Source: Cylindrospermopsis raciborskii Cr2010 (GTDB taxonomy: Bacteria > Cyanobacteriota > Cyanobacteriia > Cyanobacteriales > Nostocaceae). From it: DNA of 32,000 nucleotides. How positions within the stretch are numbered: the stretch's first letter is position 1; each line of letters opens with the position of its first letter. The stretch is from assembly GCF_003367075.2 (NCBI RefSeq), contig NZ_CP065936.1:1560001-1592000 (forward strand), given 5' to 3'. Shown here in pieces: positions 5,037-27,734 of the stretch. A program made the translations under genes and the position numbers. The notes under the pieces are model-generated. The model was not told the origin of the DNA. It made no database searches and saw only the letters and a list, made by a program, of their open reading frames with translations.

Positions 5037-6584
5037 CTAGCTACGAATCACTGTAATGGTTCTTCCCTCTCGACTAATGGCCTGTTCCATACTAATCCTC
5101 TCACCCATGGGTGGTAATCCCGGACGGTGATCAAAAATTACTAACCAACCTCTATCTAATCCTAACCCACCCAGATACTTATCCAATTGGGTCAAACCCT
5201 TCGTTAACGGATCCGATTTTCCCCTCCAAACCTTTAACTCTATGCCCATCACTACCTTGCCATAGCGTAAACAAATATCCATTCTTCCAGAACCAACGGC
5301 ATATTCCCGTTCTAAAGTGCCACCACCATTCACTACCCGATGTAAAAACGCCATCAAAACTAAATGGGGAGCAATTTCATGATAAGGCGCACTTTTGAGT
5401 AATGGTTCCCCATGTTGTCGCCAAAACTCTAGGAAAGCATTTAAGAGTTTGTCAGGATTTAAAGTATTATCAGTATTTAACCAAGTAGGTTGAATCTGGG
5501 GTAGACTATCCTGACTACCCTGGGACAAAACACGAGGAATCACCTCCTGGTAAATGGGATTGGCAATGGTTAGTCCTCCCAAGGGACTGCGCTTTACCAA
5601 GCCTAAATCTAGCAAGAAACGGCGATCATCCTCTGGGGTATCTGGTAAGTCCGATCCAGCTAACATGGGTTGAATAATGGCTTTGACCCGATCTTCCCGT
5701 AAGCGCTCTGCCAAACTATCCAAATGGGTATCCTGGCGCTGAATCAGAACTTCTTTGGCTTGGTTAATTACTTCAGCGGTAATGGGTTGAGTAATATCTT
5801 TCACTAACACCTGAGTGGCTTGACGAGCTAGGGCGTTTACTAACCATGGTTGCCCATCGGTTAAATAAAATGCTTGTTTAATTGCTTCCGGGGTAAAAAT
5901 TTGTCCTGTAGCTTGCGTATGTTGTAAGTAAAGTTCTTCCACCTCTGACAGAGTGAAATTACTTAAAGTCAAGGATTCCGCTTTGATATTGAAAGGACTT
6001 GACGTATTCAGTCGTTCACTTCCACCAGATTTAACCTTATAGTCCCGCACATCCCGCATACCAATTAACCCCACCGAATGGGGAAATCCCCGAGGACGAC
6101 GGGGAAAACCTGAGCGTAATTGTCTTAAAATTAGGATTAAAGCTTCATCTGTTAGGGAATCGATTTCATCTAAAAAGATTACAAGAGGTCTTGGAGATTG
6201 TGCGGACCACTCACTTAAAGTTTTGCCTATTCCTGAGTCTGTTTCACGCTCTGGCCAATAGGATGGTTGTAGTTCTTTGGGTAAATAAAATTTGATTGCC
6301 TGTTTCCATTCTTCTAAAATAACCTGCTCCGCTTGCTGGGGATTATGGGAGAATACTGATCCCACTTCAACGGAAAGCATAACTGCGGTATATTTTCCAC
6401 TATCAGTCAATTCTCGTGCTAAGGCTATCATAGCTGTAGTTTTGCCGACTTGTCGCGGCGCGTGAATTATAAAGTAGTTTTCTCCGTCAATTAGTGCTTT
6501 CAAATCCGGTAGTCGAGCTGTGGGAGAGAGCATATAGTGGATTTCGGATTTACAGGGTCCAGCAGTATTAAAGTATTTAGGCAT
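5037..6584 (-). CDS. AAA-type ATPase fused to a C-terminal PD-(D/E)XK nuclease-like domain (function unknown)
   Basis: 515 aa. Walker A is HAPRQVGKTT and Walker B is LVIFLDEIDSL. The C-terminus has GRMDI-x11-GIELKVW, a D...ExK nuclease-type motif. The N-terminal YFNTAGPC...HYML signature matches a widespread family of orphan ATP-binding proteins. The gene is inserted between hypF and hypC. Confidence 0.8.
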   Translation of the reverse strand: MPKYFNTAGPCKSEIHYMLSPTARLPDLKALIDGENYFIIHAPRQVGKTTAMIALARELTDSGKYTAVMLSVEVGSVFSHNPQQAEQVILEEWKQAIKFYLPKELQPSYWPERETDSGIGKTLSEWSAQSPRPLVIFLDEIDSLTDEALILILRQLRSGFPRRPRGFPHSVGLIGMRDVRDYKVKSGGSERLNTSSPFNIKAESLTLSNFTLSEVEELYLQHTQATGQIFTPEAIKQAFYLTDGQPWLVNALARQATQVLVKDITQPITAEVINQAKEVLIQRQDTHLDSLAERLREDRVKAIIQPMLAGSDLPDTPEDDRRFLLDLGLVKRSPLGGLTIANPIYQEVIPRVLSQGSQDSLPQIQPTWLNTDNTLNPDKLLNAFLEFWRQHGEPLLKSAPYHEIAPHLVLMAFLHRVVNGGGTLEREYAVGSGRMDICLRYGKVVMGIELKVWRGKSDPLTKGLTQLDKYLGGLGLDRGWLVIFDHRPGLPPMGERISMEQAISREGRTITVIRS

Positions 6585-6630: not shown

Positions 6631-9030
6631 TTAGGCATTTTGCCCACATCTAGCTGCAACAATCATAGCTTGTCCCAGAGATATTCCTCCATCATTTGGA
6701 GGTACTTTACTATGGGTAAAAACTTCCATGCCCATATTTTGCAGTAATTTAGTTGTTTGCTGCAAAAGAATTCGGTTTTGAAATACTCCCCCGGTTAGTG
6801 CTACTTGATTAGTTTTATATTCTTGACTCAATTGTTTAACTGTTTCTATAATCAAATGGGCTAGAGTTAGGTGAAACTTGGCAGCTATTTCCCCTATTCC
6901 AACTTGTTGGTTTATATCCTCTAAGATTCCTTTCCATATAGAAGCTGTGTTTACATAGTACATTCCATCTAACTTTTCAATATTTTGATGTGATGGATAA
7001 CTGGATATATCATTTAGTATTTCAGGACTAATACAGGACTCCATTTCTATAGCTGCTTGTCCCTCGTAGGTACATTCTTCTCGACAAATGCCAATTGCTG
7101 CTGCTACCGCATCAAATAACCTACCAACAGATGATACAAGGGGTGAGTTAATATTTTTTTCCACCATTTGATCTAGCAATTTCAAAGGTTGTTTTTGTAG
7201 AAACTGCACAATTTCTAGAGATGGATATTGTTCTTGAACCTCTTGCCAATTTAAAGCACTATTGAGGTGAGCATAAGTATTTCTCCAGGGTTGATAAATA
7301 GATTGTTTTCCCCCTATCATAGGTACTGGTTTAAAGGTAGCCAGTCTTTGGTAATTAGAATAATCAGCCAGGAAAAATTCTCCTCCCCAGAAATTACCAT
7401 CTTCTCCATATCCTAAACCATCAAAAGCTACACCTAATACTGGCTGGCTATTTAAAGGTATTTTGTTTTCCGCTAGACAAGCTGCAATGTGAGCATGATG
7501 ATGTGGAATTTCATAAAGTTGGATTTCATTACTGACTGCTAATTGTCTACCCAGTTTTGATGATAAATATTCCGGATGTTTATCAATGGCAATAATTGCT
7601 GGTTTATGGGCGAATAAATTGAGATATAAATTTAGGGTTTCTTGATAGGTAGCAAAAGCGGAGGCATTTTCTAAATCTCCTAAATGTTGTGATAAAATAG
7701 CCTCACCTGCTCTCAATAAACAAAAGGTGTTTTTCAATTCCCCACCCATGGCTAAAATAGGTGGTGTCTTTTCAAGACCTTGTGGTAAAATAATCGGTGC
7801 TGGTGCATATCCCCTAGCGCGTCTGAGAATTTGGATTTTTTGATTAACTACTCTCACTACTGAATCATCTACTCGGTTAATAATATCTCGATTATGTAAT
7901 AAAAAATAATCAGCTATTGGAGCTAACTTTTTTTTAGCATCTGAATTATCAATACATTGAGGTTCATCGGCAATATTACCACTGGTCAGAACTATGGGAA
8001 CATTCATTCTCCTGAGAATTAAATGATGTAAAGGAGTATAGGGCAACATAAAACCCAGAGTGTTTTGACCAGGTGCGATCGCCCTGGCTATGGGATTCCC
8101 TATTTGGGATTTGACTGAGTTAGGTGGCAAGTTATTTTGGGGATTAATTTTTAATAAAACAATTGGTGCAGCAGGACTAGTTAATAAATCTTTTTCTAAA
8201 TCAGAAATCTGACAATATTGAGATATTATATTGATATCTCTAGCCATTAAAGCAAAAGGTTTATGATAACGTTTTTTTCGCTGTCGTAATTTTTCAACTA
8301 CAGTTTCTTGGGTAGCATCACAAGCTAAATGGAAACCGCCTAACCCTTTAATAGCAACGATTTCACCTTTTTGTAATAAAGTACAAACTGCATCAACCTC
8401 ATCCAACATAGAAAACATATCCCCAGTGATAGGTTGACCATCAGCACGTTCTAACCATGCGCGGGGACCACAACGAAAACAAGCTACGGGTTGAGCGTGG
8501 AAACGTCTATTATTCACATCTTCATATTCCTGGTTACATTCTCCACACATAGGAAAATCTACCATGCTAGTATTATTTCTATCGTAGGGAATGGCCTGCA
8601 TAATACTTAACCGTGGTCCACAATGGGTACAGTTAGTAAAGGGGTAGCGGAAATAACGACTAAAGGGATCAAAAATTTCCTTTTGACATTCATCACAGGT
8701 TGCAGCATCGGGAACAATTTCCGTTTTCACTGGTGTTTCCATACTGGGAGAAATGATAAATTCTTTGAGTTCATCACCATGGAAATCATTAGACCCAGAA
8801 AGTGGACTCCTGATTAGTTCATGAATTTGAGCTAGGGGTGGACAGTGGTCATACAGTTGCTGCACAAAAGCAGTTATCTTTTCCTCACTCCCTACAATCC
8901 GGATTAAAACTCCATCCCCATCATTACATACATCTCCTTTTAAACCAGCATTTTTAGCCAAGCGGTAAACCGTGGGACGAAAACCTACACCCTGAACAGT
9001 ACCCCTAACTCTTATTTGCTCTGTTCTCAT
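6631..9030 (-). CDS. hypF: Carbamoyltransferase HypF
   Basis: 799 aa. It has an N-terminal acylphosphatase domain (VRGTVQGVGFRP), paired CxxC zinc-finger motifs (CDECQKE, CTHCGPR, CGECNQE, CFRCGPR), a YrdC-like region and a Kae1-like C-terminus. Confidence 0.95.
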   Translation of the reverse strand: MRTEQIRVRGTVQGVGFRPTVYRLAKNAGLKGDVCNDGDGVLIRIVGSEEKITAFVQQLYDHCPPLAQIHELIRSPLSGSNDFHGDELKEFIISPSMETPVKTEIVPDAATCDECQKEIFDPFSRYFRYPFTNCTHCGPRLSIMQAIPYDRNNTSMVDFPMCGECNQEYEDVNNRRFHAQPVACFRCGPRAWLERADGQPITGDMFSMLDEVDAVCTLLQKGEIVAIKGLGGFHLACDATQETVVEKLRQRKKRYHKPFALMARDINIISQYCQISDLEKDLLTSPAAPIVLLKINPQNNLPPNSVKSQIGNPIARAIAPGQNTLGFMLPYTPLHHLILRRMNVPIVLTSGNIADEPQCIDNSDAKKKLAPIADYFLLHNRDIINRVDDSVVRVVNQKIQILRRARGYAPAPIILPQGLEKTPPILAMGGELKNTFCLLRAGEAILSQHLGDLENASAFATYQETLNLYLNLFAHKPAIIAIDKHPEYLSSKLGRQLAVSNEIQLYEIPHHHAHIAACLAENKIPLNSQPVLGVAFDGLGYGEDGNFWGGEFFLADYSNYQRLATFKPVPMIGGKQSIYQPWRNTYAHLNSALNWQEVQEQYPSLEIVQFLQKQPLKLLDQMVEKNINSPLVSSVGRLFDAVAAAIGICREECTYEGQAAIEMESCISPEILNDISSYPSHQNIEKLDGMYYVNTASIWKGILEDINQQVGIGEIAAKFHLTLAHLIIETVKQLSQEYKTNQVALTGGVFQNRILLQQTTKLLQNMGMEVFTHSKVPPNDGGISLGQAMIVAARCGQNA

Positions 9031-9064
9031 GTTTTTACTGCAAAAGCATATTCATATTATATTC

Positions 9065-12000
9065 TAATAGGGTTGGTGGAATATTCAAGGGGAGGTTAGA
9101 AAATGCGATCGCTCTTATGAATGAGGTTGTCTATCCGAATATCAAATATTGGTGGTTGAAAAAAGACCTTATATGCGGACACAGATTCCCATGATGAAAA
9201 TATATCATTGTCAAGTCAAGTAGTCAACCCCCCAATGGAAAATTTTCTGGTGCGTAATACATATTAGGGTTGATGGAATATTAGGAGGGTTGGGAAATGC
9301 GATCGCTCTTATGAACGGGATTGTCTATCCAGGAATATGAGATGTTGATGGAATATTAGGAGGGTTGGGAAATGCGATCGCCTTTATGAAGGGGGTTGTC
9401 GATCCGAATATCAAATATTGGTGGTTGAAAAAAGACCTTATATGCGGACACAGATTCCCATGATGAAAATATATCATTGTCAAGTCAAGTAGTCAACCCC
9501 CCAATGGAAAATTTTCTGGCGCGTAATACATATTAGGGTTGATGGAATATTAGGAGGGTTGGGAAATGCGATCGCCTTTATGAAGGGGGTTGTCTATCCG
9601 AATATCAAATATTGGTGGTTGAAAAAAGACCTTATATGCGGACACAGATTCCCATGGTGAAAATATATCATTGTCAAGTCAAGTGGTCAACCCCCTAATG
9701 GAAAATTTTCTGGCGCGTAATACAGGGTTGATGGAATATTAGGAGGGTTGGGAAATGCGATCGCCCTTATGAAGGGGGTTGTCGATCCGAATATCAAATA
9801 TTGGTGGTTGAAAAAAGACCTTATATGCGGACACAGATTCTCATGATGAAAATATATCATTGTCAAGTCAATTAGTCAACCCCCCAATGGAAAATTTTCC
9901 GGCGCGTAATACAGGGTTGATGGAATAGGAGGGTTGGGAAATGCGATCGCCTTTATGAAGGGGGTTGTCGATCCGAATATCAAATATTGGTGGTTGAAAA
10001 AAGACCTTATATGCGGACACAGATTCCCATGATGAAAATATATCATTGTCAAGTCAAGTAGTCAACCCCCCAATGGAAAATTTTCTGGCGCGTAATACAT
10101 ATTAGGGTTGGTGAAATATTAGGAGGGGTTGGGAAATGCGATCGCTCTTATGAACGGGATTGTCTATCCAGGAATATGAGATGTTGATGGAATATTCGGA
10201 GAGGGGACTAAAAAATGCGATCGCCCTTATGAAGGGGATTGTCGATCCGAATATCAAATATTGGTGGTTGAAAAAAGACCTTATATGCGGACACGGATTC
10301 CCGCGATGAAAATATATCATTGTCAAGTCAAGCAGTCAACCCCCCAATGGAAAATTTTCTGGCGCGTAATACATATTAGGGTTGGTGAAATATTAGGAGG
10401 GGTTGGGAAATGCGATCGCTCTTATGAACGGGATTGTCTATCCAGGAATATGAGATGTTGATGGAATATTCGGAGAGGGGACTAAAAAATGCGATCGCCC
10501 TTATGAAGGGGATTGTCGATCCGAATATTAAATATTGGTGGTTGAAAAAAGACCTTATATGGGCACACAGATTCCCATGATGAAAATATATCATTGTCAA
10601 GTCAAGCAGTCAACCCCCCAATGGAAAATTTTCTGGCGCGTAATACATATTAGGGTTGGTGAAATATTAGGAGGGGTTGGGAAATGCGATCGCTCTTATG
10701 AACGGGATTGTCTATCCAGGAATATGAGATGTTGATGGAATATTAGGAGAGGGGACTAAAAAATGCGATCGCCTTTATGAATGGGGTTGTCGATCCGAAT
10801 ATCAAATATTGATGGTTGAAAAAAGACCTTATATGCGGACACAGATTCCCATGATGAAAATATATCATTGTCAAGTCAAGCAGTCAACCCCCCAATGGAA
10901 AATTTTCTGGCGCGTAATACATATTAGGGTTGGTGAAATATTAGGAGGGGTTGGGAAATGCGATCGCCTTTATGAAGGGGGTTGTCTATCCGAATATCAA
11001 ATATTGGTGGTTGAAAAAAGACCTTATATGCGGACACAGATTCCCATGGTGAAAATATATCATTGTCAAGTCAAGTGGTCAACCCCCTAATGGAAAATTT
11101 TCTGGCGCGTAATACAGGGTTGATGGAATATTAGGAGGGTTGGGAAATGCGATCGCTCTTATGAACGGGATTGTCGATCCGAATATCAAATATTGGTGGT
11201 TGAAAAAAGACCTTATATGGGCACACAGATTCCCATGATGAAAATATATCATTGTCAAGTCAAGTAGTCAACCCCCCAATGGAAAATTTTCTGGCGCGTA
11301 ATACAGGGTTGATGGAATATTAGGAGGGTTGGGAAATGCGATCGCCTTTATGAATGGGGTTGTCGATCCGAATATCAAATATTGGTGGTTGAAAAAAGAC
11401 CTTATATGCGGACACAGATTCCCATGATGAAAATATATCATTGTCAAGTCAAGTAGTCAACCCCCCAATGGAAAATTTTCTGGCGCGTAATACATATTAG
11501 GGTTGATGGAATATTAGGAGGGTTGGGAAATGCGATCGCCCTTATGAATGGGGTTGTCTATCCAGGAATATGAGATGTTGATGAAATATTAGGAGGGGTT
11601 GGGAAATGCGATCGCCTTTATGAAGGGGGTTGTCTATCCGAATATCAAATATTGGTGGTTGAAAAAAGACCTTATATGCGGACACGGATTCCCATGATGA
11701 AAATATATCATTGTCAAGTCAAGTAGTCAACCCCCCAATGGAAAATTTTCTGGCGCGTAATACAGGGTTCGTGGAATATTTGAGGGGAGGTTAGAAAACG
11801 CGATCGCCTTTATGAATGGGGTTGTCGATCCGAATATCAAATATTGGTGGTTGAAAAAAGACCTTATATGCGGACACAGATTTCCATGATGAAAATATAT
11901 CATTGTCAAGTCAATTAGTCAACCCCCCAATGGAAAATTTTCTGGCGCGTAATACATATTAGGGTTGATGGAATATTAGGAGGGTTGGGAAATGCGATCG

Positions 12001-12442
12001 CCTTTATGAAGGGGGTTGTCGATCCGAATATCAAATATTGGTGGTTGAAAAAAGACCTTATATGCGGACACAGATTCCCATGGTGAAAATATATCATTGT
12101 CAAGTCAATTAGTCAACCCCCCAATGCAAAATTTTCTGGCGCGTAATACAGGGTTGGTGAAATATTAGGAGGGGTTGGGAAATGCGATCGCCTTTATGAA
12201 TGGGGTTGTCGATCCGAATATCAAATATTGGTGGTTGAAAAAAGACCTTATATGGGCACACAGATTCCCATAATGAAAATATATCATTGTCAAGTCAAGT
12301 AGTCAACCCCCCAATGGAAAATTTTCTGGCGCGTAATACATATTAGGGTTGGTGAAATATTAGGAGGGGTTGGGAAATGCGATCACTCTTATAAAGGGGA
12401 TTGTCGATCCGAATATCAAATATTGGTGGTTGAAAAAAGACC
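9065..12442. repeat. Non-coding tandem repeat array: 16 units (11 of ~186-195 bp, 5 of ~269-274 bp) built from head (H) and tail (T) modules
   Basis: The marker GGTGGTTGAAAAAAGACC (GATGG... at 10811) recurs at 9151, 9420, 9614, 9803, 9989, 10263, 10537, 10811, 11006, 11195, 11384, 11654, 11846, 12040, 12230 and 12425. The spacings are 269, 194, 189, 186, 274, 274, 274, 195, 189, 189, 270, 192, 194, 190 and 195 bp. There are 21 head modules, giving 20 perfect GCGATCGC sites plus one degenerate GCGATCAC. The last unit is truncated after ...AAGACC at 12442. Confidence 0.97.
9199..9227 (-). promoter_or_regulatory. hypF-proximal copy of the array-borne sigma70-type promoter (-35 TTGACT, 17-nt spacer, extended -10 TGaTATATT)
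   Basis: The minus strand reads GGGGGGTTGACTacttgacttgacaaTGaTATATTttcatcatggg. The -35 box is at 9227-9222 and the -10 box at 9204-9199. The predicted TSS is near 9192, about 160 nt upstream of the hypF ATG (9030). This is a sequence prediction only. Confidence 0.5.
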
Positions 12443-12590
12443 ACATTAAGTAGGGAGGCACAATTATTTGTAGGATGGGTCGCGAGACCCATGGGGGCGT
12501 TGAGTTTCATACTTCAACCCAACCTACGTTCATCTTAGATTTAATTCCACCCACCCACTTAGGTAGCGTCGAGGAGGGAATAAGAATGGC

Positions 12591-13181
12591 TTAATGCCAA
12601 ACGTAGATAAGTACAAACAGAATAATCCAAATAACATCAACAAAGTGCCAAAACAAAGAGGTTGAGTTTACCCCAAAGTGACCATGATCGTAATTGCCAG
12701 GAAGAAAAGAGCGCATGAGAATTATCAACTGCAATAGAATACCTGTGAGAACATGTAACCCATGAAATCCCGTTAATAAATAAAACATACCGCCGAATGT
12801 ACCGGAAGTAAAGCCAAATTCCAGTTGACTCCACTCCACATATTGACCATATAAGAAATAAGTACCCATAGCGATTGTGGCTAATAAGTATAATCGAAAT
12901 CCAGGTAAATCATGTTTTTGTAAACGTCTTTCAGCCAAATAAATTACAAAACTACTAGAAACCAGAATAATTGTGTTAATTGTGGGACTTACTATTTCCA
13001 GTCCTTCCACCCCAGCAGGAAGCCAATTGGAATTGGTAGTTTTATAGACGATATAACCAGCAAAAAAACTGAGAAATATGACACTTTCCGAAAGTAGAAA
13101 AACAATAAAACCAAACATTTTACTGCCTTCTTCATCATGACCATGTTGAGATTGAATAGGATTGTTGAGCGAGCTTTCCAT
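12591..13181 (-). CDS. coxC: Heme-copper oxidase subunit III (ARTO-type operon)
   Basis: 196-aa polytopic membrane protein with subunit III motifs (FFAGY, YGQYVEW, GFHGLHV, WHFVDVIW). It is the last gene of the coxBAC operon. Confidence 0.9.
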   Translation of the reverse strand: MESSLNNPIQSQHGHDEEGSKMFGFIVFLLSESVIFLSFFAGYIVYKTTNSNWLPAGVEGLEIVSPTINTIILVSSSFVIYLAERRLQKHDLPGFRLYLLATIAMGTYFLYGQYVEWSQLEFGFTSGTFGGMFYLLTGFHGLHVLTGILLQLIILMRSFLPGNYDHGHFGVNSTSLFWHFVDVIWIILFVLIYVWH

Positions 13182-13268
13182 GATAGTTCTCCTTAGATAA
13201 TGGTTATAGAAATAGGTTTTTTCAAGAAAAGAAAGAGGCGTTTTCGCCCCTTTCAGGTGAGGTGATAT

Positions 13269-14942
13269 TTACTCAACCATTTCCATGGTAGAATTCTCCA
13301 GATTAGCGGTTAATGGTTCCGACTTACCATAACCGTATGGTTCACTAATAATGATAGGAATTTCTTCAAAATTTTCTACCGATGGAGGTGAAGAAATGAG
13401 CCATTCTAAACCTATAGCTCGCCAAGGATTAGGTGGAGCTTTCTCACCGTCTAACCAAGAAACTAAAATGTTGAAAATAAATGGTAAAGTGGACATTCCT
13501 AACAGAAATGCTCCCAGACTAGCCAAAATATTCCAAAACGTGTACTCTGGTGCATAGGAAGCAACTCTTCTTAACATCCCCTGCAAACCCAGAGGATGCA
13601 TAGGTAAAAAGTTTAAATTTGTACCAATAAATGCCAACCAAAAATGCACCCTTCCCCAACCCTCATTAAACATTCTTCCAGTCATTTTGGGGAACCAATG
13701 ATAAATAGCAGCATACATTCCCATAGTTACCGTTCCATATAGTACATAATGGAAATGTCCCACTACAAAATAGGTATTATTCACATGAACATCAATGGGA
13801 ACCGACGAGAGCATAATCCCAGTAATCCCAGCAAAAACAAACATGATTAAACCACCCAGCGCAAACAACATAGGAGTGGTTAATTTAATTTTGCCTCCCC
13901 AAATCGTTCCTACCCAAGCAAATACCTTAATTCCCGTAGGAACGGAGACAAACATAGTAGTCAGCATGAACAATAACCGCATCCAACCAGGAGTTCCACT
14001 CACATACATGTGGTGTACCCAAACAATAGCACTAACCACCGCAATTAACATGGAAGAAATAGCCACTACCTTATATCCAAATAATGGCTTGCGGGAATAA
14101 ACAGGAAAGATTTCTGAAAAAATACCAAATATTGGGAGAATAATCACATAAACTGCAGGATGGGAGTAAAACCAGAAATAATGTTGAAACATAACTGGAT
14201 TACCACCATTAATAGGATTAAAAAATCCCGTTCCCACTGTTAAATCAAACAATAACATTAATGCTCCAGCTGTCAAAGCAGGGAGTCCAAATAATTGAAT
14301 AATTTGAGCACTAAAAACTGCCCAAACAAACAAAGGCATTTTAAAAAACCCCATTCCTGGGGCACGCATTTTGACAATGGTGGTGACAAAGTTCACTGCG
14401 CCCATAATTGAGGAAACACCGGAAATAGCTACAGCTAATAACCAAAGAACTTGACCATTAATTAAATTGCCAGTAGGATTTTGTAAACTGACTGGGGGAT
14501 AGGCCCACCAACCAGCTTGAGCAGGTCCACCGGGAACTGCAAAGCTGGACATGAGTAAAATTCCCACCACAGGAACCATCCAAAAAGCAGCTGCATTGAG
14601 ACGGGGAAATGCCATATCCCTCGCACCAATCATGATGGGTACGAGATAGTTTGCTAGACCTACAAGGGAGGGGAATGTCCATAGGAACAGCATCACTGTT
14701 CCGTGCATGGTAAACATCCCATTATAAACCGTGCGATCTATTAAGTCAGATTCGGGAGTAACTAGTTCTCCCCGCAAAATCATAGCGAAAATTCCACCGA
14801 CAAGAAAGAAAATAAAGGAAGTTACTAGATATTGAATACCTATGACTTTATGGTCTGTACTAAAGGTGAAATAGGTTTTCCAGTGAGTTGGTGTTGGGTG
14901 ATGATTTGATTCACCACCAAGATTAAGTAATATGTTAGTCAT
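13269..14942 (-). CDS. coxA: Heme-copper oxidase subunit I
   Basis: 557 aa with the classic subunit I signatures (TDHKVIGIQY, WFYSHPAVY, VWVHHMY, GHFHYVL). Confidence 0.95.
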   Translation of the reverse strand: MTNILLNLGGESNHHPTPTHWKTYFTFSTDHKVIGIQYLVTSFIFFLVGGIFAMILRGELVTPESDLIDRTVYNGMFTMHGTVMLFLWTFPSLVGLANYLVPIMIGARDMAFPRLNAAAFWMVPVVGILLMSSFAVPGGPAQAGWWAYPPVSLQNPTGNLINGQVLWLLAVAISGVSSIMGAVNFVTTIVKMRAPGMGFFKMPLFVWAVFSAQIIQLFGLPALTAGALMLLFDLTVGTGFFNPINGGNPVMFQHYFWFYSHPAVYVIILPIFGIFSEIFPVYSRKPLFGYKVVAISSMLIAVVSAIVWVHHMYVSGTPGWMRLLFMLTTMFVSVPTGIKVFAWVGTIWGGKIKLTTPMLFALGGLIMFVFAGITGIMLSSVPIDVHVNNTYFVVGHFHYVLYGTVTMGMYAAIYHWFPKMTGRMFNEGWGRVHFWLAFIGTNLNFLPMHPLGLQGMLRRVASYAPEYTFWNILASLGAFLLGMSTLPFIFNILVSWLDGEKAPPNPWRAIGLEWLISSPPSVENFEEIPIIISEPYGYGKSEPLTANLENSTMEMVE

Positions 14943-14984
14943 GATTTTAGATGTTACATTTTACAAATTGGATATTAGCTGAAC

Positions 14985-15926
14985 TTAAAGATGACTATCA
15001 CCCACGAAATTGACCACTGGAGGTGCAGCAGGTGGAACAGTTTTCCAACCCAGTTGGATGTTTTTATTGTGGGTCTGAGCATATTCTGTAGCTGCTTGAT
15101 TGGGAGCAGCTGTAGGACTTTGACTAGCTGCTTTCTTTAACCAGTTTTCATAATCTTCTGGTGCTTGGACTATTACTTTTGCTTCCATAGTCGCAAAGTA
15201 AGTACCACTATATTGAGAGTCGGTAAGACTATATTTACCAATGAGAGTTGGGGTAAATTCAAAGTCTATAGTTTTACCAGGAACAATATCCTGTTTAACT
15301 CGAAATGCTGGAATATAAAAACCATGGAGTACATCTTCTGATTGCAGTGCTAAATGTACACGTTGATTGCTGGGTAAATGCAGTTCCGTACTAGTAATAC
15401 CCTGTTGAGGATAGCTAAATATCCAAGCCCATTGTTTAGCAACTACATCTATGTTTTCCAGAGGTTTATCTAAACTTGTTGCGGTTGGTTCTTGCTCTTT
15501 TTTTCCTAAGCTAAGTTGGATAGGAAGAGGATTATGTAAGTGTAATAAGTGACCAGGTCCCTGGATTCCTATAGTTTCATAAACTTGATAACTGTAGGTT
15601 GCTATCCATAGGACTAACATGATGGGAATAGCAGTCCAAATAATTTCTAGGGTAATATTTCCTTCGATATGTGGACCATCAGTAAAGTCATAGATTCTGG
15701 CTCTATGGAATAGGACAGAATATAAAATTGCTGCTGTAACCCCCAGAAAAATAAAGGCTCCTATGGTTACTAAAAAACTGAATAGATTATCTATCAAATG
15801 TGATTCAGCTGCAGCTTGCGGTGGTAACCAAGAATAGGATTGTTTACCAATAAAGATGCTCAGGAAGGTGATGAATATTCCTAGAGTCATCACAAGAAAA
15901 ATATTCACAATTAACCGGATATTCAT
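14985..15926 (-). CDS. coxB: Heme-copper oxidase subunit II lacking CuA ligands (ARTO/quinol-oxidase-like)
   Basis: 313 aa with two N-terminal TM helices and a cupredoxin domain (DVLHGFYIPAFRVKQD). The CuA motif CxExCGxxHxxM is replaced by DSQYSGTYFATM, so both Cys and the second His are absent. Confidence 0.9.
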   Translation of the reverse strand: MNIRLIVNIFLVMTLGIFITFLSIFIGKQSYSWLPPQAAAESHLIDNLFSFLVTIGAFIFLGVTAAILYSVLFHRARIYDFTDGPHIEGNITLEIIWTAIPIMLVLWIATYSYQVYETIGIQGPGHLLHLHNPLPIQLSLGKKEQEPTATSLDKPLENIDVVAKQWAWIFSYPQQGITSTELHLPSNQRVHLALQSEDVLHGFYIPAFRVKQDIVPGKTIDFEFTPTLIGKYSLTDSQYSGTYFATMEAKVIVQAPEDYENWLKKAASQSPTAAPNQAATEYAQTHNKNIQLGWKTVPPAAPPVVNFVGDSHL

Positions 15927-15986
15927 AGTTATGTCTGGGTGAATTTACTAAGAGAAAATGGGCAATAGGCAAATAGAATAGGTTAA

Positions 15987-16595
15987 CTATTTCCCCAATA
16001 CACTGTTGACATCCTCTCCCATTCTCAACAAATTATCTGCCGTATTATGTACACCAAATTCTGCTGCTAATTGGGCTCCTAGAGTTCCATGCGCGTACAT
16101 AATTACCATGATCAAAACTCCGGCAAAAATATAACTCCAACCTACCTGCATATCGGCATCTTTATAGGTTATATAACGTTGCCATCCTCTCCAAAAGGTC
16201 ATTCCTACCATTAAGGCTAATAAGAAAACACCACCTACACCATGCCACATCATGGTTTCCATAGCTTGCATTCCCCAAGAACTCTTGAGGTTCACCGGTG
16301 GAGTGGCTAATAACATTTCATAAAAACCCGCAGCAACTGTAAAAAATGTAATTACAGATGAAGCTACCATGTTGTACCAACCAACTTCAAATAATTGAGC
16401 TCGGTTGACAGTTAAACCCAGAGATTTAAACAAGAAGTGGTCTATAGGAAATAGAACAGCTACTAAATCGAAAATAACTCCAATGATAAACAGTCCTAAA
16501 GTTAGGTGAACTAGATTTGGATGAATGGGGATTGTGTAGGGTAATCCGTTGGCTCCCATTTGAGCACTTACTTGATCAATTAGTTCTGAATTCAT
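15987..16595 (-). CDS. DUF2231-like integral membrane protein
   Basis: The ORF runs to 16655. However, the ATG at 16595 (MNSELID...) forms an ATGA overlap with the stop of the upstream paralog, suggesting translational coupling. It has a PIHPNLVH motif and several TM helices. Confidence 0.7.
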   Translation of the reverse strand: MNSELIDQVSAQMGANGLPYTIPIHPNLVHLTLGLFIIGVIFDLVAVLFPIDHFLFKSLGLTVNRAQLFEVGWYNMVASSVITFFTVAAGFYEMLLATPPVNLKSSWGMQAMETMMWHGVGGVFLLALMVGMTFWRGWQRYITYKDADMQVGWSYIFAGVLIMVIMYAHGTLGAQLAAEFGVHNTADNLLRMGEDVNSVLGK

Positions 16596-17092
16596 TTCAA
16601 GATTCCATCCTTTACTGCTTCCACAACTGGTACTGTATGAATGCCATAAACCCATACCAGTTCATCACCTAGATATACTTGAAAACCTACTAGTATGGTC
16701 ACCAGTAATCCCACAGCTAAATAGTGCACCGGCAATTTTTGTGGATTACGCGCACGCAGTACATAACGCCAAGCTGTGATTGCAGCTAAAATTCCTGACA
16801 GTGACCAACCAATTAGGGTATGGTAGTTTAAAACTGATTTCACAATATTGTAGGGTTTGGCTAAACCAGCTTCAAACTGACCGAAAATAATTGCTATGAA
16901 AATAGAAACTGTAGCTACAAACAAGTTCCAAAATCCCACTTCATAAAATCTGGTTTTTCCTGTGAAAAAGCCAACTGCATCACAAAAAAATGCAAATAAT
17001 ATCATGGCAATTACGAAGTGAACCACAATCGGATGGAGTGGATCTGGATAGGGTAAATTGTGGTCGTTCAATGAGGTTAAATACTCAAACAT
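16592..17092 (-). CDS. DUF2231-like integral membrane protein
   Basis: 166 aa with a PLHPIVVHF motif and four predicted TM helices. It is a paralog of the next gene and the first gene of the apparent oxidase operon. Confidence 0.7.
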   Translation of the reverse strand: MFEYLTSLNDHNLPYPDPLHPIVVHFVIAMILFAFFCDAVGFFTGKTRFYEVGFWNLFVATVSIFIAIIFGQFEAGLAKPYNIVKSVLNYHTLIGWSLSGILAAITAWRYVLRARNPQKLPVHYLAVGLLVTILVGFQVYLGDELVWVYGIHTVPVVEAVKDGILK

Positions 17093-17560
17093 TAATTTCT
17101 CCTCTTTAGTTAGATGCTCGTCCAGTATTTACAGCTGGCACCAATTTTCGCTGAGCTATATTCATCAGTCACTACCAGATTTTCATATTCTTGTGCTTTT
17201 ATTCTGTTCATCTAGCGTTACTTTTAGATTGATTCCCTAGTGATTTTTCAGCATTTTGTGGTTACAAGTCATAATTATTGGACACCCTTATATTGCGGTA
17301 TTGCGTAACTTTTTGTCCTCTAATTTTTTTAAAAATACCTTATGGGTTACGCTAACCCATCATAACTCGGTCAAAACTAAAAGTTTGACAAAATGGTAGA
17401 TAGCCATGATATTCAACTTCACTGGATGTAGCTATTATGAAATACAAAGAAAATATTTTGATGTCTACTATTTTACATTTAAGAATTATTGCTTTGCTTG
17501 GTAAAGTATAGTTTTGGTAGCTTTCTATAGATGGATCCATGACACATCGCAAAAAAAGGT

Positions 17561-18502
17561 CTATACTCGCAAAATTGCTAAAAATGTACATTCCCAAACC
17601 AGTCGCGGTTGAGCGTAGCACAACAAGTTTTTTCGAGTCTTTTCTAATTCTTGAATAATCTGTGGTTTATGTGTTTTTTGCCAATAATACTGTTGTAAGT
17701 ATTCAATTAACCATAGCTGTCCTTCCGTGTCTAGCTCCCGATCAATTCTTTTACCCAATTCCAAGGCGTGTAAGTATGAGGTGGGCAATTTTTTTACTTC
17801 CTGGAGTAATTCGCTATTAATGCTTTGTAGTTGTTGGTGAGCCAAAATAGCACTTCCCGGACTCCCCGCAGCTAGGTTTAAGATTTCTGGGTGTTCTAAA
17901 ATCTCTAGGTTTCCTGTTCTGGTTAACACCTGAGTTAAACTACTACTGTCTAACCTATAAAAGGGAATTTTTTGACACCGGGAAACCAATGTGGGTAGAA
18001 TAGATTCCGGACTAGGTGCAATTAAAATTAAAGTTGCTCTTCCTGGTTCCTCTAAAGTTTTTAGTAGAGCATTAGCAGCAGATTCAGCCATAGCCTCTGC
18101 TTGCTCTATTACTACCACGCTACGTACAGACTCTAAGGGAGGACGGGATAAAAATTGAGAGATTTCCCTAATTTGCTCCAATCTAATTACCGGTGGTGCT
18201 TTACGCTTAACCTTTTTTTCTGCTGCTTGTGCTGCGGTTAGTCTTTCTCCTTGATATTGATAGGTGGGTTCTACCCAGAATAAGTCTGGGTGATTTCTTT
18301 GACTAACACGGTTTTTTAAAACGGACAATTCTTCACCATCTCTAGAACCAGCAAACAGTAGTTGGATAAAACACGTTGCTGCTAAACTTCTCCCTACCCC
18401 ATCCTTCCCCGCAAATAAGTAAGCTGGTGCAATACGGTTTTGTTTCACGGATGCAGTTAATAGTTCTATGGCTTGTTGCTGTCCTATCAGTTCTTCAAAC
18501 AT
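17561..18502 (-). CDS. holB: DNA polymerase III delta-prime subunit
   Basis: 313 aa. The N-terminus ELIGQQQAIELL...RIAPAYLFAGKDGVGRS, VVVIEQAEAM (Walker B-like) and SRCQ (sensor) are typical of HolB. It lies directly downstream of tmk, a common pairing. Confidence 0.85.
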   Translation of the reverse strand: MFEELIGQQQAIELLTASVKQNRIAPAYLFAGKDGVGRSLAATCFIQLLFAGSRDGEELSVLKNRVSQRNHPDLFWVEPTYQYQGERLTAAQAAEKKVKRKAPPVIRLEQIREISQFLSRPPLESVRSVVVIEQAEAMAESAANALLKTLEEPGRATLILIAPSPESILPTLVSRCQKIPFYRLDSSSLTQVLTRTGNLEILEHPEILNLAAGSPGSAILAHQQLQSINSELLQEVKKLPTSYLHALELGKRIDRELDTEGQLWLIEYLQQYYWQKTHKPQIIQELEKTRKNLLCYAQPRLVWECTFLAILRV

Positions 18503-19603: not shown

Positions 19604-19676
19604 CGAGCGCGGAGGGATTTGAACCCCCGACCCACAGAACCGGAATCTGTTGCTCTATCCACTGAGCCACGCGCCC
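19604..19676 (-). tRNA. tRNA-Arg (anticodon CCG)
   Basis: The minus strand reads GGGCGCG TG GCTC AGTGGAT AGAGC A ACAGA TTCCGGT TCTGT GGGTC GGGGG TTCAAAT CCCTC CGCGCTC G. This is a full cloverleaf with a TTC loop. The 3' CCA is not encoded. Confidence 0.9.
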
Positions 19677-25826: not shown

Positions 25827-27056
25827 CTAAAATCTCCCATTCCCCTGAATAATATGTTTCACAGTGGTCAAAGTTTCTAAACTAATGAAACCTCTCCTTT
25901 GACCTCTTTGATTTGACATTCCCAAAAACACCGCATCTCCCCTGGAAGAATTACGAGCAAATCGAGGAGAAGCATTGATATATGTGGATGCACTGTTAAC
26001 ACCTAAGGCAAATTGTCTGCTTTCTTGGTAAGACTCTGTGGCTATAGCATCCGCGTGACTACTACTATATTGATTAATCCAGGCGATCGCACTATCTAGG
26101 GTATCTACCAATTTGAAAGCGATGGTCTTATTTAAATATGGAGTTCCCCATTCCTCATCTTGAACCAATTGCAGTTGGGGAAAAGCTTGTACTAGTTCGC
26201 CATCTCCCTTGAGTTGAAAACCCCTGTCTTTTAGACTGTTCCACAGTGCAGATAGGGAGGATGGTAAGGACTGACGGTGGACTAAAACCTTTTCAATAGC
26301 ATTTACTGGATCCGGTTCGCTTTCATGACTATCCAAGACCATCCATCGTACCATTTCTAAGCTCCCATTTAAAGACCAGTAAAGGTAACAATTCCCCATA
26401 GCTGATTTTAATATGGGACAGGTTGCTTGTCTAACTACTTGTTGAATCAAGCTGGAACGTCCATAAGGAATAACCAAACTTAAATAGTCTTCCTGAGTCA
26501 CTAAATCCCTGATAGAAGTGCCATGTTCTGCTGTAATTAATTCTACACAACCACTAGGGAGACCCGCATCTAAAATCGCCGTTTGGAGAATTTCTGCGAT
26601 CGCTCTATTGGAATGACTAGCTTCCGTACTTCCCTTGAGAATAAGGCTATTACCAGTTTTCAGACAAAAACCGGCGGCAATGGCCCCTAATTCCGGTAAA
26701 GCCTCATAAATAAAACCAATTACACCCAAGGGCATAAGTTGGGTATAACTTTGAGAATCTTCCTGTTGATAATCAGCAGTTCTCACCCGTCGTAGGGGAT
26801 CGGATAGTTCCCCCAATCGCTCCAGCAGATCCACGGTTGCTTGCAAGCGACTAGGGGTAAGTTTAAGCCAGTCCAGGATTAATTCTGGAACTGCCATTTC
26901 CCTACTTGCTTCCAAATCAAGGGTATTGGCTTCCAGAATATCATCAAAGGAGCATTTTAGTGCCCTGGCCATTGCCAAAACGGCGCGACTCCGTTCCGCA
27001 CCTTTAGTTGTACCTAATTTGATGGCAGCATGATAAGCACGTTTGGCAATGTTCAT
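25827..27056 (-). CDS. Gamma-glutamyl phosphate reductase (ProA)-like aldehyde dehydrogenase-family paralog
   Basis: 409 aa, colinear with ProA (LKTGNSLILKGSTE, IPYGRSSL, HADAIAT, NASPRF). The catalytic Cys position (recalled for E. coli as STCNTVETLLV) reads PDPVNAIEKVLV here, so Cys is replaced by Val. Confidence 0.75.
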   Translation of the reverse strand: MNIAKRAYHAAIKLGTTKGAERSRAVLAMARALKCSFDDILEANTLDLEASREMAVPELILDWLKLTPSRLQATVDLLERLGELSDPLRRVRTADYQQEDSQSYTQLMPLGVIGFIYEALPELGAIAAGFCLKTGNSLILKGSTEASHSNRAIAEILQTAILDAGLPSGCVELITAEHGTSIRDLVTQEDYLSLVIPYGRSSLIQQVVRQATCPILKSAMGNCYLYWSLNGSLEMVRWMVLDSHESEPDPVNAIEKVLVHRQSLPSSLSALWNSLKDRGFQLKGDGELVQAFPQLQLVQDEEWGTPYLNKTIAFKLVDTLDSAIAWINQYSSSHADAIATESYQESRQFALGVNSASTYINASPRFARNSSRGDAVFLGMSNQRGQRRGFISLETLTTVKHIIQGNGRF

Positions 27057-27662: not shown

Positions 27663-27734
27663 AGCGGGTAACGCGATTCGAACGCGCGACATCAACCTTG
27701 GCAAGGTTGCGCTCTACCACTGAGCTATACCCGC
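27663..27734 (-). tRNA. tRNA-Gly (anticodon GCC)
   Basis: The minus strand reads GCGGGTA TA GCTC AGTGGT AGAGC G CAACC TTGCCAA GGTTG ATGTC GCGCG TTCGAAT CGCGT TACCCGC T. This is a full cloverleaf. The 3' CCA is not encoded. Confidence 0.9.

Follow-up and report, generated by a model that had tools for sequence, protein, structure and literature searches.

Tandem promoters are known from the P1/P2 pair of rRNA genes and from the spacer promoters of eukaryotic rDNA intergenic spacers, and bacterial variable-number tandem repeats (VNTRs) and satellite-like intergenic arrays form a general class with which repeat arrays can be compared. Filamentous cyanobacteria carry repetitive intergenic sequences that include HIP1, the heptamer-based STRR and the LTRR, whose 37-bp unit has the character of a CRISPR repeat. 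A 23-nucleotide (nt) LTRR sequence, AAATCCCTATCAGGGATTGAAAC, lies in the hyp region of Nostoc 7120 (Masepohl et al., 1996, cited in PMC2408588), and the small RNA NsiR1 is encoded near hetF by 12 tandem copies, each of which has its own promoter (Ionescu et al., 2010; PMC4030482). The present analysis concerns a tandem array in a 32,000-nt stretch of the genome of Cylindrospermopsis raciborskii Cr2010 (the window), where the 3.4-kb gap between coxC and hypF contains 15 complete head-to-tail repeat units, each bearing a near-consensus promoter-like site (Table 1). The array is interpreted here, with roughly even confidence, as a clade-specific, recombination-driven, promoter-bearing satellite built around a small cassette comprising a promoter and a short transcript, any effect of which on hypF would be incidental. 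No description of this array was found in the literature; the internally repetitive cluster with 39 occurrences in strain CS-505 (Stucken et al., 2010) may be this repeat family.

The array resembles the NsiR1 locus in that both are head-to-tail Nostocales repeats with one promoter per repeat, all in one orientation and beside a gene linked to diazotrophy. The two have no sequence homology, however, and the NsiR1 promoters carry the DIF motif TCCGGA and depend on HetR, whereas those of the array match the sigma-70 consensus and lack DIF. NsiR1 is a defined 60-nt RNA found at one syntenic site in all heterocyst formers, whereas no hairpin or defined 3′ end was found for the array, whose family occurs in one clade, at two loci and in 0 to 38 copies. 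With VNTRs and satellites the array shares polymorphism in copy number, duplication of higher-order blocks, concerted evolution and the decay of units at its edges, but units as long as 189–274 nt, arrays of up to 3–9 kb and a complete near-consensus promoter, held in common with an array in another order, are unlike the usual VNTR. Like LTRR, STRR and HIP1, it belongs to the repetitive intergenic sequences of filamentous cyanobacteria; LTRR and STRR nevertheless differ from its 190-nt unit and carry no promoter, and HIP1 (GCGATCGC) is contained within the array, whose 21 head modules hold, over 3.4 kb, 20 exact copies and one GCGATCAC variant. The rRNA P1/P2 and rDNA spacer promoters are similar in that a transcription unit is preceded by repeated promoters pointing in one direction, but those promoters are few, fixed in position and devoted to one operon, whereas the promoters of the array number dozens, vary between strains and recur at a second locus that faces the wrong way.

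Read on the minus strand, each unit consists of an A/T tract, GGGGGG, the promoter, a conserved T module and one or two variable, HIP1-containing head (H) modules. Tandem Repeats Finder reported periods of 189, 190, 269 and 274 nt at 91–96% identity, together with higher-order periods of 274, 384 and 462 nt. No copy of the repeat was found elsewhere in the window, and dispersed solo units were found neither there nor in the related loci compared. The initial annotation had placed 15 extended -10 promoters on the minus strand of the array, and all 15 were recovered at the same coordinates, each with a 17-nt spacer, a TG at -15/-14 (TGA-TATATT) and the -10 box TATATT (5/6). Its description of TTGACT as the -35 hexamer of every copy, with both hexamers intact throughout, requires amendment: the -10 box is unaltered in 15 of 15 copies and TTGACT is present in 13, but the two ‘GTGG’ copies (sites 7 and 13) carry TTGACC. 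Both -35 variants match TTGACA at five of six positions, and every site combines the elements of a sigma-70-type (group 1 sigma, ‘type 1’) extended -10 promoter, namely a -35 box, a spacer of 16–18 nt, a -10 box with A2 and T6, and TGn.

Table 1. Positions in the window of the tandem array, its promoter-like sites and the features adjoining it.
Feature	Position	Strand	Remarks
Tandem array	9072..12442	-	15 complete units, 186-274 nt, plus a truncated unit on the cox side
Promoter-like site 1	12278..12306	-	TTGACT, 17 nt, TGn, TATATT
Promoter-like site 2	12088..12116	-	
Promoter-like site 3	11894..11922	-	
Promoter-like site 4	11702..11730	-	
Promoter-like site 5	11432..11460	-	
Promoter-like site 6	11243..11271	-	
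Promoter-like site 7	11054..11082	-	-35 variant TTGACC (‘GTGG’ copy)
Promoter-like site 8	10859..10887	-	
Promoter-like site 9	10585..10613	-	
Promoter-like site 10	10311..10339	-	
Promoter-like site 11	10037..10065	-	
Promoter-like site 12	9851..9879	-	
Promoter-like site 13	9662..9690	-	-35 variant TTGACC (‘GTGG’ copy)
Promoter-like site 14	9468..9496	-	
Promoter-like site 15 (hypF-proximal)	9199..9227	-	Predicted start ~9192, predicted hypF leader ~162 nt
Segment of ~42 nt downstream of the -10 box, ending in a T6 run	9157..9198	-	TTCATCATGGGAATCTGTGTCCGCATATAAGGTCTTTTTT; example copy
T-module invariant block	9137..9168	-	Half-palindrome AATAT-N3-ATATT (GAATATCAAATATTGGTGGTTGAAAAAAGACC on the plus strand); 16 copies
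Unique leader, array to hypF ATG	9031..9071	-	TATAAT 9056-9061, overlapping TAGAAT 9061-9066
hypF	6631-9030	-	TIGR00143, E 2.2e-245
Long imperfect hairpin element (MITE-like; MITE, miniature inverted-repeat transposable element)	12443..12575	-	Between the ctaE/coxC stop and the array; cox-side array boundary
Cytochrome oxidase subunit III (ctaE/coxC)	12591..13181	-	Final gene of coxBAC, an operon upstream of the array and in the same orientation

Because the 15 copies represent one amplified unit and not independent events, the role of chance was judged per unit. Markov sequence totalling 2 Mb, generated with the composition of either the window or the array, gives an expectation of about 0.002 sites with at least 10 of 12 hexamer matches, a 17-nt spacer and TGn per random 189-nt unit with both strands counted, which places the near-consensus resemblance proposed in the initial annotation well above chance; the remaining 28.6 kb of the window contain one site of that quality. 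The resemblance is strengthened by an A4T4 tract, read from the sequence, at about -54 to -47 of the array promoter, the region where UP elements lie in Escherichia coli. It is strengthened further by an independent array in Spirulina whose similarity is confined to the promoter and the ~42 nucleotides transcribed first. Given the quality of the match and this conservation across genera, the array promoters are fairly likely to be recognized by the housekeeping sigma factor.

The Spirulina array was identified in scans for the array promoter that used exact 20–21-mers only. Across 185,579 species-representative genomes, the promoter 20-mer occurs outside the clade only in Spirulina sp. 06S082, a match in Mucilaginibacter (L001) being due to chance. 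In Spirulina the promoter belongs to a 360-nt tandem repeat beside tex that is otherwise unrelated to the unit of the window, and local alignment of the two units is restricted to ~70 nt, comprising a triple TTGAC, the extended -10, the -10 box and ~42 nt up to a T6–7 run. Downstream of the anchor, 27 of 42 nucleotides are identical, compared with 6–16 of 42 in 18 chance matches, and none of 100,000 shuffles reached 27. The array is absent from Spirulina relatives with 97% and 91% identical Tex proteins; it is strain-specific there too. This homology is the sole evidence for constraint on the cassette, or for its mobility, beyond the reach of concerted evolution, and the sharing of a promoter cassette between orders is the most curious element of the array. 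A tentative and rather unlikely extension is that the ~70-nt cassette could be an unrecognized, horizontally spreading mini-gene that forms kilobase arrays in distant cyanobacteria (Cylindrospermopsis/Raphidiopsis and Spirulina). Such arrays would supply either a very short regulatory RNA encoded dozens of times on each chromosome or a pool of entry sites for RNA polymerase, tunable through copy number, by which the expression of downstream genes would be rewired (hypF in the sense direction, purE in antisense).

Sequence variation among the units is less informative about function. Among 31 short units, ~23% of the alignment columns are variable, and these are concentrated in the head modules, in spacer nucleotides 6–8 and near the predicted start site. 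The promoter contains an invariant core of 25 nt (TTGACTTGACAATGATATATTTTCA), and a non-promoter block of 31 nt (TTTTTCAACCACCAATATTTGATATTCGGAT) is as invariant as this core and longer. A hand estimate from the value of 23% gives a chance of ~0.13 that one variable column or none would fall among the 14 hexamer and TG positions; the sparing of the hexamers is therefore a weak argument for function and statistically not significant, and copies would be kept alike by concerted evolution whether functional or not. Two separate invariant blocks per unit, the retention of the TTGAC repeats in Spirulina and the ~58 near-identical sites on the chromosome of C. curvispora GIHE-G1 would also suit an array that acts at the DNA level, in which RNA polymerase with SigA, or a regulator, would be drawn in bulk to the triple TTGAC direct repeat and to the AATAT-N3-ATATT palindrome, the array serving as a sink, an insulator or a chromosome organizer. 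This purely inferential proposal is highly improbable, given that no gene for a binding protein is linked to the arrays, that the palindrome block is not common to the Spirulina array, and that neither of the two motifs scanned, the NtcA box GTA-N8-TAC and the DIF motif TCCGGA, has a match. Activation by NtcA would require a box centred near -41.5, but the only one in the whole window is at 26533, outside the array, and the DIF motif, expected near -35 in promoters of the NsiR1 type, does not occur in 9031-12590; control of the array promoters by NtcA or DIF was rejected on the absence of both motifs.

The cox–hypF locus was compared among strains and assemblies of the Raphidiopsis/Cylindrospermopsis raciborskii clade, in which copy number ranges widely. 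R. raciborskii GIHE 2018, whose PacBio assembly (PMC7005129) encodes an identical HypF protein, has 33 promoter copies in a single orientation in a coxC–hypF gap of 7.3 kb, and the complete genome of C. curvispora GIHE-G1 has 38 in a gap of 8.9 kb, as against 15 in the window. A contig labelled Chrysosporum bergii (L002) has a single unit beside hypF and near-identical hypF-upstream sequence, and C. raciborskii UAM/DH-BiRr (L027), with a 98% identical HypF, has no unit at the same junction. In L002 (3990-5000), unrelated sequence and a polyketide synthase gene replace the DNA upstream of GGGGGGTTGACT; the same replacement sequence precedes hypF in L027 (1-140), where the contig ends after ~150 nt and the polyketide synthase gene is not seen. 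Such a replacement is in keeping with the report that the cylindrospermopsin cluster inserts at the hyp locus (PMC2821919). The hypF-proximal unit (site 15) is kept in L002 and also in L011 and L024. On the far side of hypF in L002, two inverted units are directed at the 3′ end of a gene with a B3_4 domain, which suggests a repeat-mediated inversion. When the window is compared with GIHE 2018, the hairpin/array junction on the cox side is present likewise, but only the terminal units correspond, the interior being reordered with block duplications. Copy number thus varies at one locus among close strains, and concerted evolution and higher-order blocks accompany it, as is characteristic of a VNTR.

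More distant relatives lack the array altogether. In L026, whose HypF is 94% identical, tmk-holB abuts hypF directly, and positions 9040-17567 of the window (the array, the hairpin element, coxCAB, two DUF2231 genes and an 89-aa open reading frame) make up an indel of 8.5 kb with the short direct repeat TTTTGC(G/A)G on either side; L026 may represent a Raphidiopsis type without diazotrophy in which this oxidase operon was lost. No array was found upstream of hypF in Sphaerospermopsis (HypF 75% identical), which has an NHL-gene–hypF arrangement, as does Nostoc PCC 7120, also without an array (PMC2408588). The possibility that the unit is the ancestral hypF promoter of the Nostocales was rejected, as an NHL-repeat gene and no related sequence occupy this position in Sphaerospermopsis and Nostoc 7120. 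One of 18 matches in a metagenome scan (L011) belongs to the family, the others being fortuitous 21-mers whose flanking sequences are unrelated.

The same repeat family fills a second gap, of 4–6 kb, between purE and hemC in GIHE-G1, with 20 copies (L033 8290-12381), and in C. raciborskii CS-505, with at least 28 (L035 6165-11832). This locus was reached through a search with a spurious plus-strand open reading frame (ORF) of the array. All of its promoters have one orientation, in which they would be read antisense into purE from its 3′ end, no terminator intervenes, and one edge copy facing purE is degraded, its -10 box reading TGTATT with loss of the critical A. Between the consensus units of both loci in all strains, the T module is near-identical and differences are confined to the head module, and arrays within one genome share variants, which is the signature of concerted evolution. 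Concerted evolution across loci, degraded edge copies and a copy-number polymorphism so extreme that it includes complete loss are all compatible with a transcriptionally inert satellite, that is, a functionless unit resembling a promoter that was amplified by slippage or unequal crossing-over, and such a satellite would also account for an orientation that ignores the neighbouring genes and for the non-significant sparing of the hexamers. An inert array is nonetheless very doubtful, since chance would so rarely furnish a random unit with such a site, and chance amplification offers no explanation for a promoter and 42 nt held in common with an unrelated array in another cyanobacterial order.

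These comparisons bear directly on the role proposed in the initial annotation, a multi-promoter amplifier of the hyp operon, in which the array would have evolved to boost or tune hypF-hypB and its 15 promoters would read through into these genes. The promoter match on which that proposal drew stands, as does the orientation: all copies are co-oriented with hypF-hypB and lie directly upstream of hypF, and the proximal copy would yield a leader close to the ~160 nt anticipated (Table 1). The neighbouring cox operon, like the hyp genes, presumably functions in diazotrophic physiology, and the proximal unit stays beside hypF even in L002, where the upstream DNA has been replaced. A dedicated amplifier is weakened, however, by the purE array, the strains with 0 or 1 copy, the holB–hypF junction and a TATAAT of hypF's own. 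The family also forms an array convergent on purE, and the inverted units of L002 aim at another gene; strains with 0 or 1 unit keep a 98% identical HypF (L027) or near-identical hypF-upstream sequence (L002); a related lineage has hypF directly at holB; and Sphaerospermopsis and Nostoc have no array upstream of hypF (PMC2408588). The perfect TATAAT lies outside the repeats, 25 nt upstream of the hypF ATG, and overlaps a TAGAAT, both boxes being 25–30 nt upstream; a promoter scan of the unique leader found a TTGAAT-16-TAGAAT site, and this leader segment is retained in the zero-copy strain L027. The TATAAT/TAGAAT region is a candidate hypF promoter independent of the array. Nor is there an NtcA box or DIF motif to link the array promoters to heterocyst or nitrogen control. 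A dedicated amplifier is consequently quite unlikely, and the array, as judged from these genomes, is dispensable and neither hyp-specific nor needed for hypF function.

Whether transcripts of the array would reach hypF depends on how they end. In agreement with the initial annotation, a terminator scan found no terminator-like hairpin with a T-run in the array, and none was found before the hypF ATG, which counts in favour of an amplifier. Rho is absent from cyanobacteria (PMC12642595), and its absence would favour read-through into hypF. The argument from the missing terminator is weaker than it looks, because only 22% of the transcription-unit ends of S. elongatus resemble canonical intrinsic terminators, most being non-canonical (PMC12642595), and a transcript may stop at the conserved T-run of the unit. 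The array probably feeds some transcription into hypF. The predicted RNA contains little G (15%, against 25.5% C), and folds of its first 45 nt and of ~140 nt revealed no structure beyond that of shuffled controls (z +0.74, +1.46 and +0.31). The initial annotation had further proposed that CCUCCU, the RNA complement of AGGAGG, occurs once per head module and might act as an anti-Shine-Dalgarno-like seed; AGGAGG was counted 16 times for 21 head modules, and the idea has no support, since the head module is the most variable part of the unit.

A stop at the T-run would be central to a further possibility, namely that the array is a set of tandem small-RNA genes resembling NsiR1, in which each unit yields a discrete, trans-acting RNA of ~40 nt with its 3′ end at the T-run, and nearby genes play no part. 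The homology with Spirulina starts at the promoter and stops right after the T6–7 run, the footprint expected of a miniature transcription unit, and in the Spirulina copy the T-run is preceded by a 7-bp hairpin (-9.6 kcal/mol). The tandem NsiR1 genes provide a precedent (PMC4030482), and non-canonical 3′ ends predominate among the transcripts of cyanobacteria (PMC12642595). The window copy, however, lacks the Spirulina hairpin: its segment at 9157..9198 forms no stable hairpin, and its fold (-3.9 kcal/mol, z +0.74) is no better than those of shuffles. The positions just past the predicted start are among the most variable of the unit, no Rfam family matched the array at E values up to 5, nothing credible was found by Rfam in the Spirulina contig, and the array is strain-variable and dispensable, as opposed to the conservation of NsiR1. 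An array of small-RNA genes is accordingly unlikely.

The promoter-bearing satellite is therefore retained as the preferred interpretation. Its core would be a cassette consisting of the A/T tract, the -35 box, the extended -10, the -10 box and ~40 transcribed nucleotides up to the T6–7 run, with the HIP1-containing head modules as freely varying filler. Unequal crossing-over and gene conversion would expand, shrink and homogenize the arrays within and between loci. Polymerase that initiates in the cassettes and passes the T-run would generate nested, unstructured, C-rich 5′ extensions on the hyp transcripts, and copy number could modulate hyp expression as a side effect. Several points weigh against this interpretation. 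Conservation within the clade proves nothing, the non-promoter block being equally invariant, and the activity of the array promoters, like the fate of any transcript, is predicted from the sequence. In the window, the segment lacks a hairpin before the T-run, so a discrete short RNA is not evident here, and the link across genera depends on one low-coverage Spirulina contig of 2.3 kb. Strong constitutive promoters would, in addition, flood purE with antisense RNA, which argues that transcription of the arrays would be weak, conditional or terminated. If the promoters fire, the locus would represent a natural gene cluster fed by a promoter bank that varies from 0 to 38 copies between strains of a bloom-forming, toxin-producing cyanobacterium, and heritable variation in expression through unequal crossing-over would be directly testable. 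The arrays also account for the interruption of short-read assemblies of this clade at hypF and purE, where contigs of L002, L024, L027, L034 and L036 end, and are an obvious marker for strain typing.

ORFs of 42–93 aa are present on both strands of the array; on the minus strand, each unit has one that runs from an ATG within the promoter to a TGA within the next -35 box. A coding role of the unit was rejected, as the differences between copies, read by inspection in the ORF frame, mostly change the amino acid. The only database relatives of these ORFs are ORFs called inside Cylindrospermopsis arrays. One array ORF was looked up in public assemblies and returned nothing, P0121 was traced only to a 576-nt DNA contig, and no mention of the ORF locus tags was found in the literature. 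On the plus strand, the head modules (9283-12367) contain AGGAGG-N8-ATG followed by a five-codon mini-ORF (MRSPL/MRSLL), the TGA of which overlaps the ATG of a 25-codon ORF (ATGA), an arrangement resembling a ribosome-binding site with translational coupling; it is probably fortuitous, there being no plus-strand promoter and the variants being non-synonymous. The array showed no similarity to plasmids or phages by blastn at E values up to 0.01, the one match to a viral contig being a lone 21-mer. Identity of the unit as a MITE or transposon was likewise rejected, as terminal inverted repeats are absent and the inverted matches, of 9–15 nt, are all internal.

On the cox side, the array is bounded by a hairpin element containing GTAGGTTGGGT...ACCCATCCTAC; the fold of 12440-12600 has a free energy of -49.2 kcal/mol (z -2.35), and the element looks like either a MITE-like palindromic element or an RNA-stabilizing 3′ structure of the cox operon. 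Two genes for DUF2231 membrane proteins (15987-17092, minus strand) precede coxB, and this coxB-DUF2231 operon presumably resembles the heterocyst-type alternative oxidase cluster of Anabaena. Downstream of the array, the remaining hyp genes were identified as well, in the order hypF-(515-aa ORF)-hypC-hypD-hypE-hypA-hypB. The 515-aa ORF (5037-6584, minus strand) has only faint AAA-ATPase (AAA_16/AAA_35) similarity; hypF and hypC are adjacent in Sphaerospermopsis, and other small ORFs occupy its position in the metagenome relative L011. Two tRNA genes on the minus strand, at 19604-19676 and 27663-27734, are the sole Rfam matches in the window at the gathering threshold.

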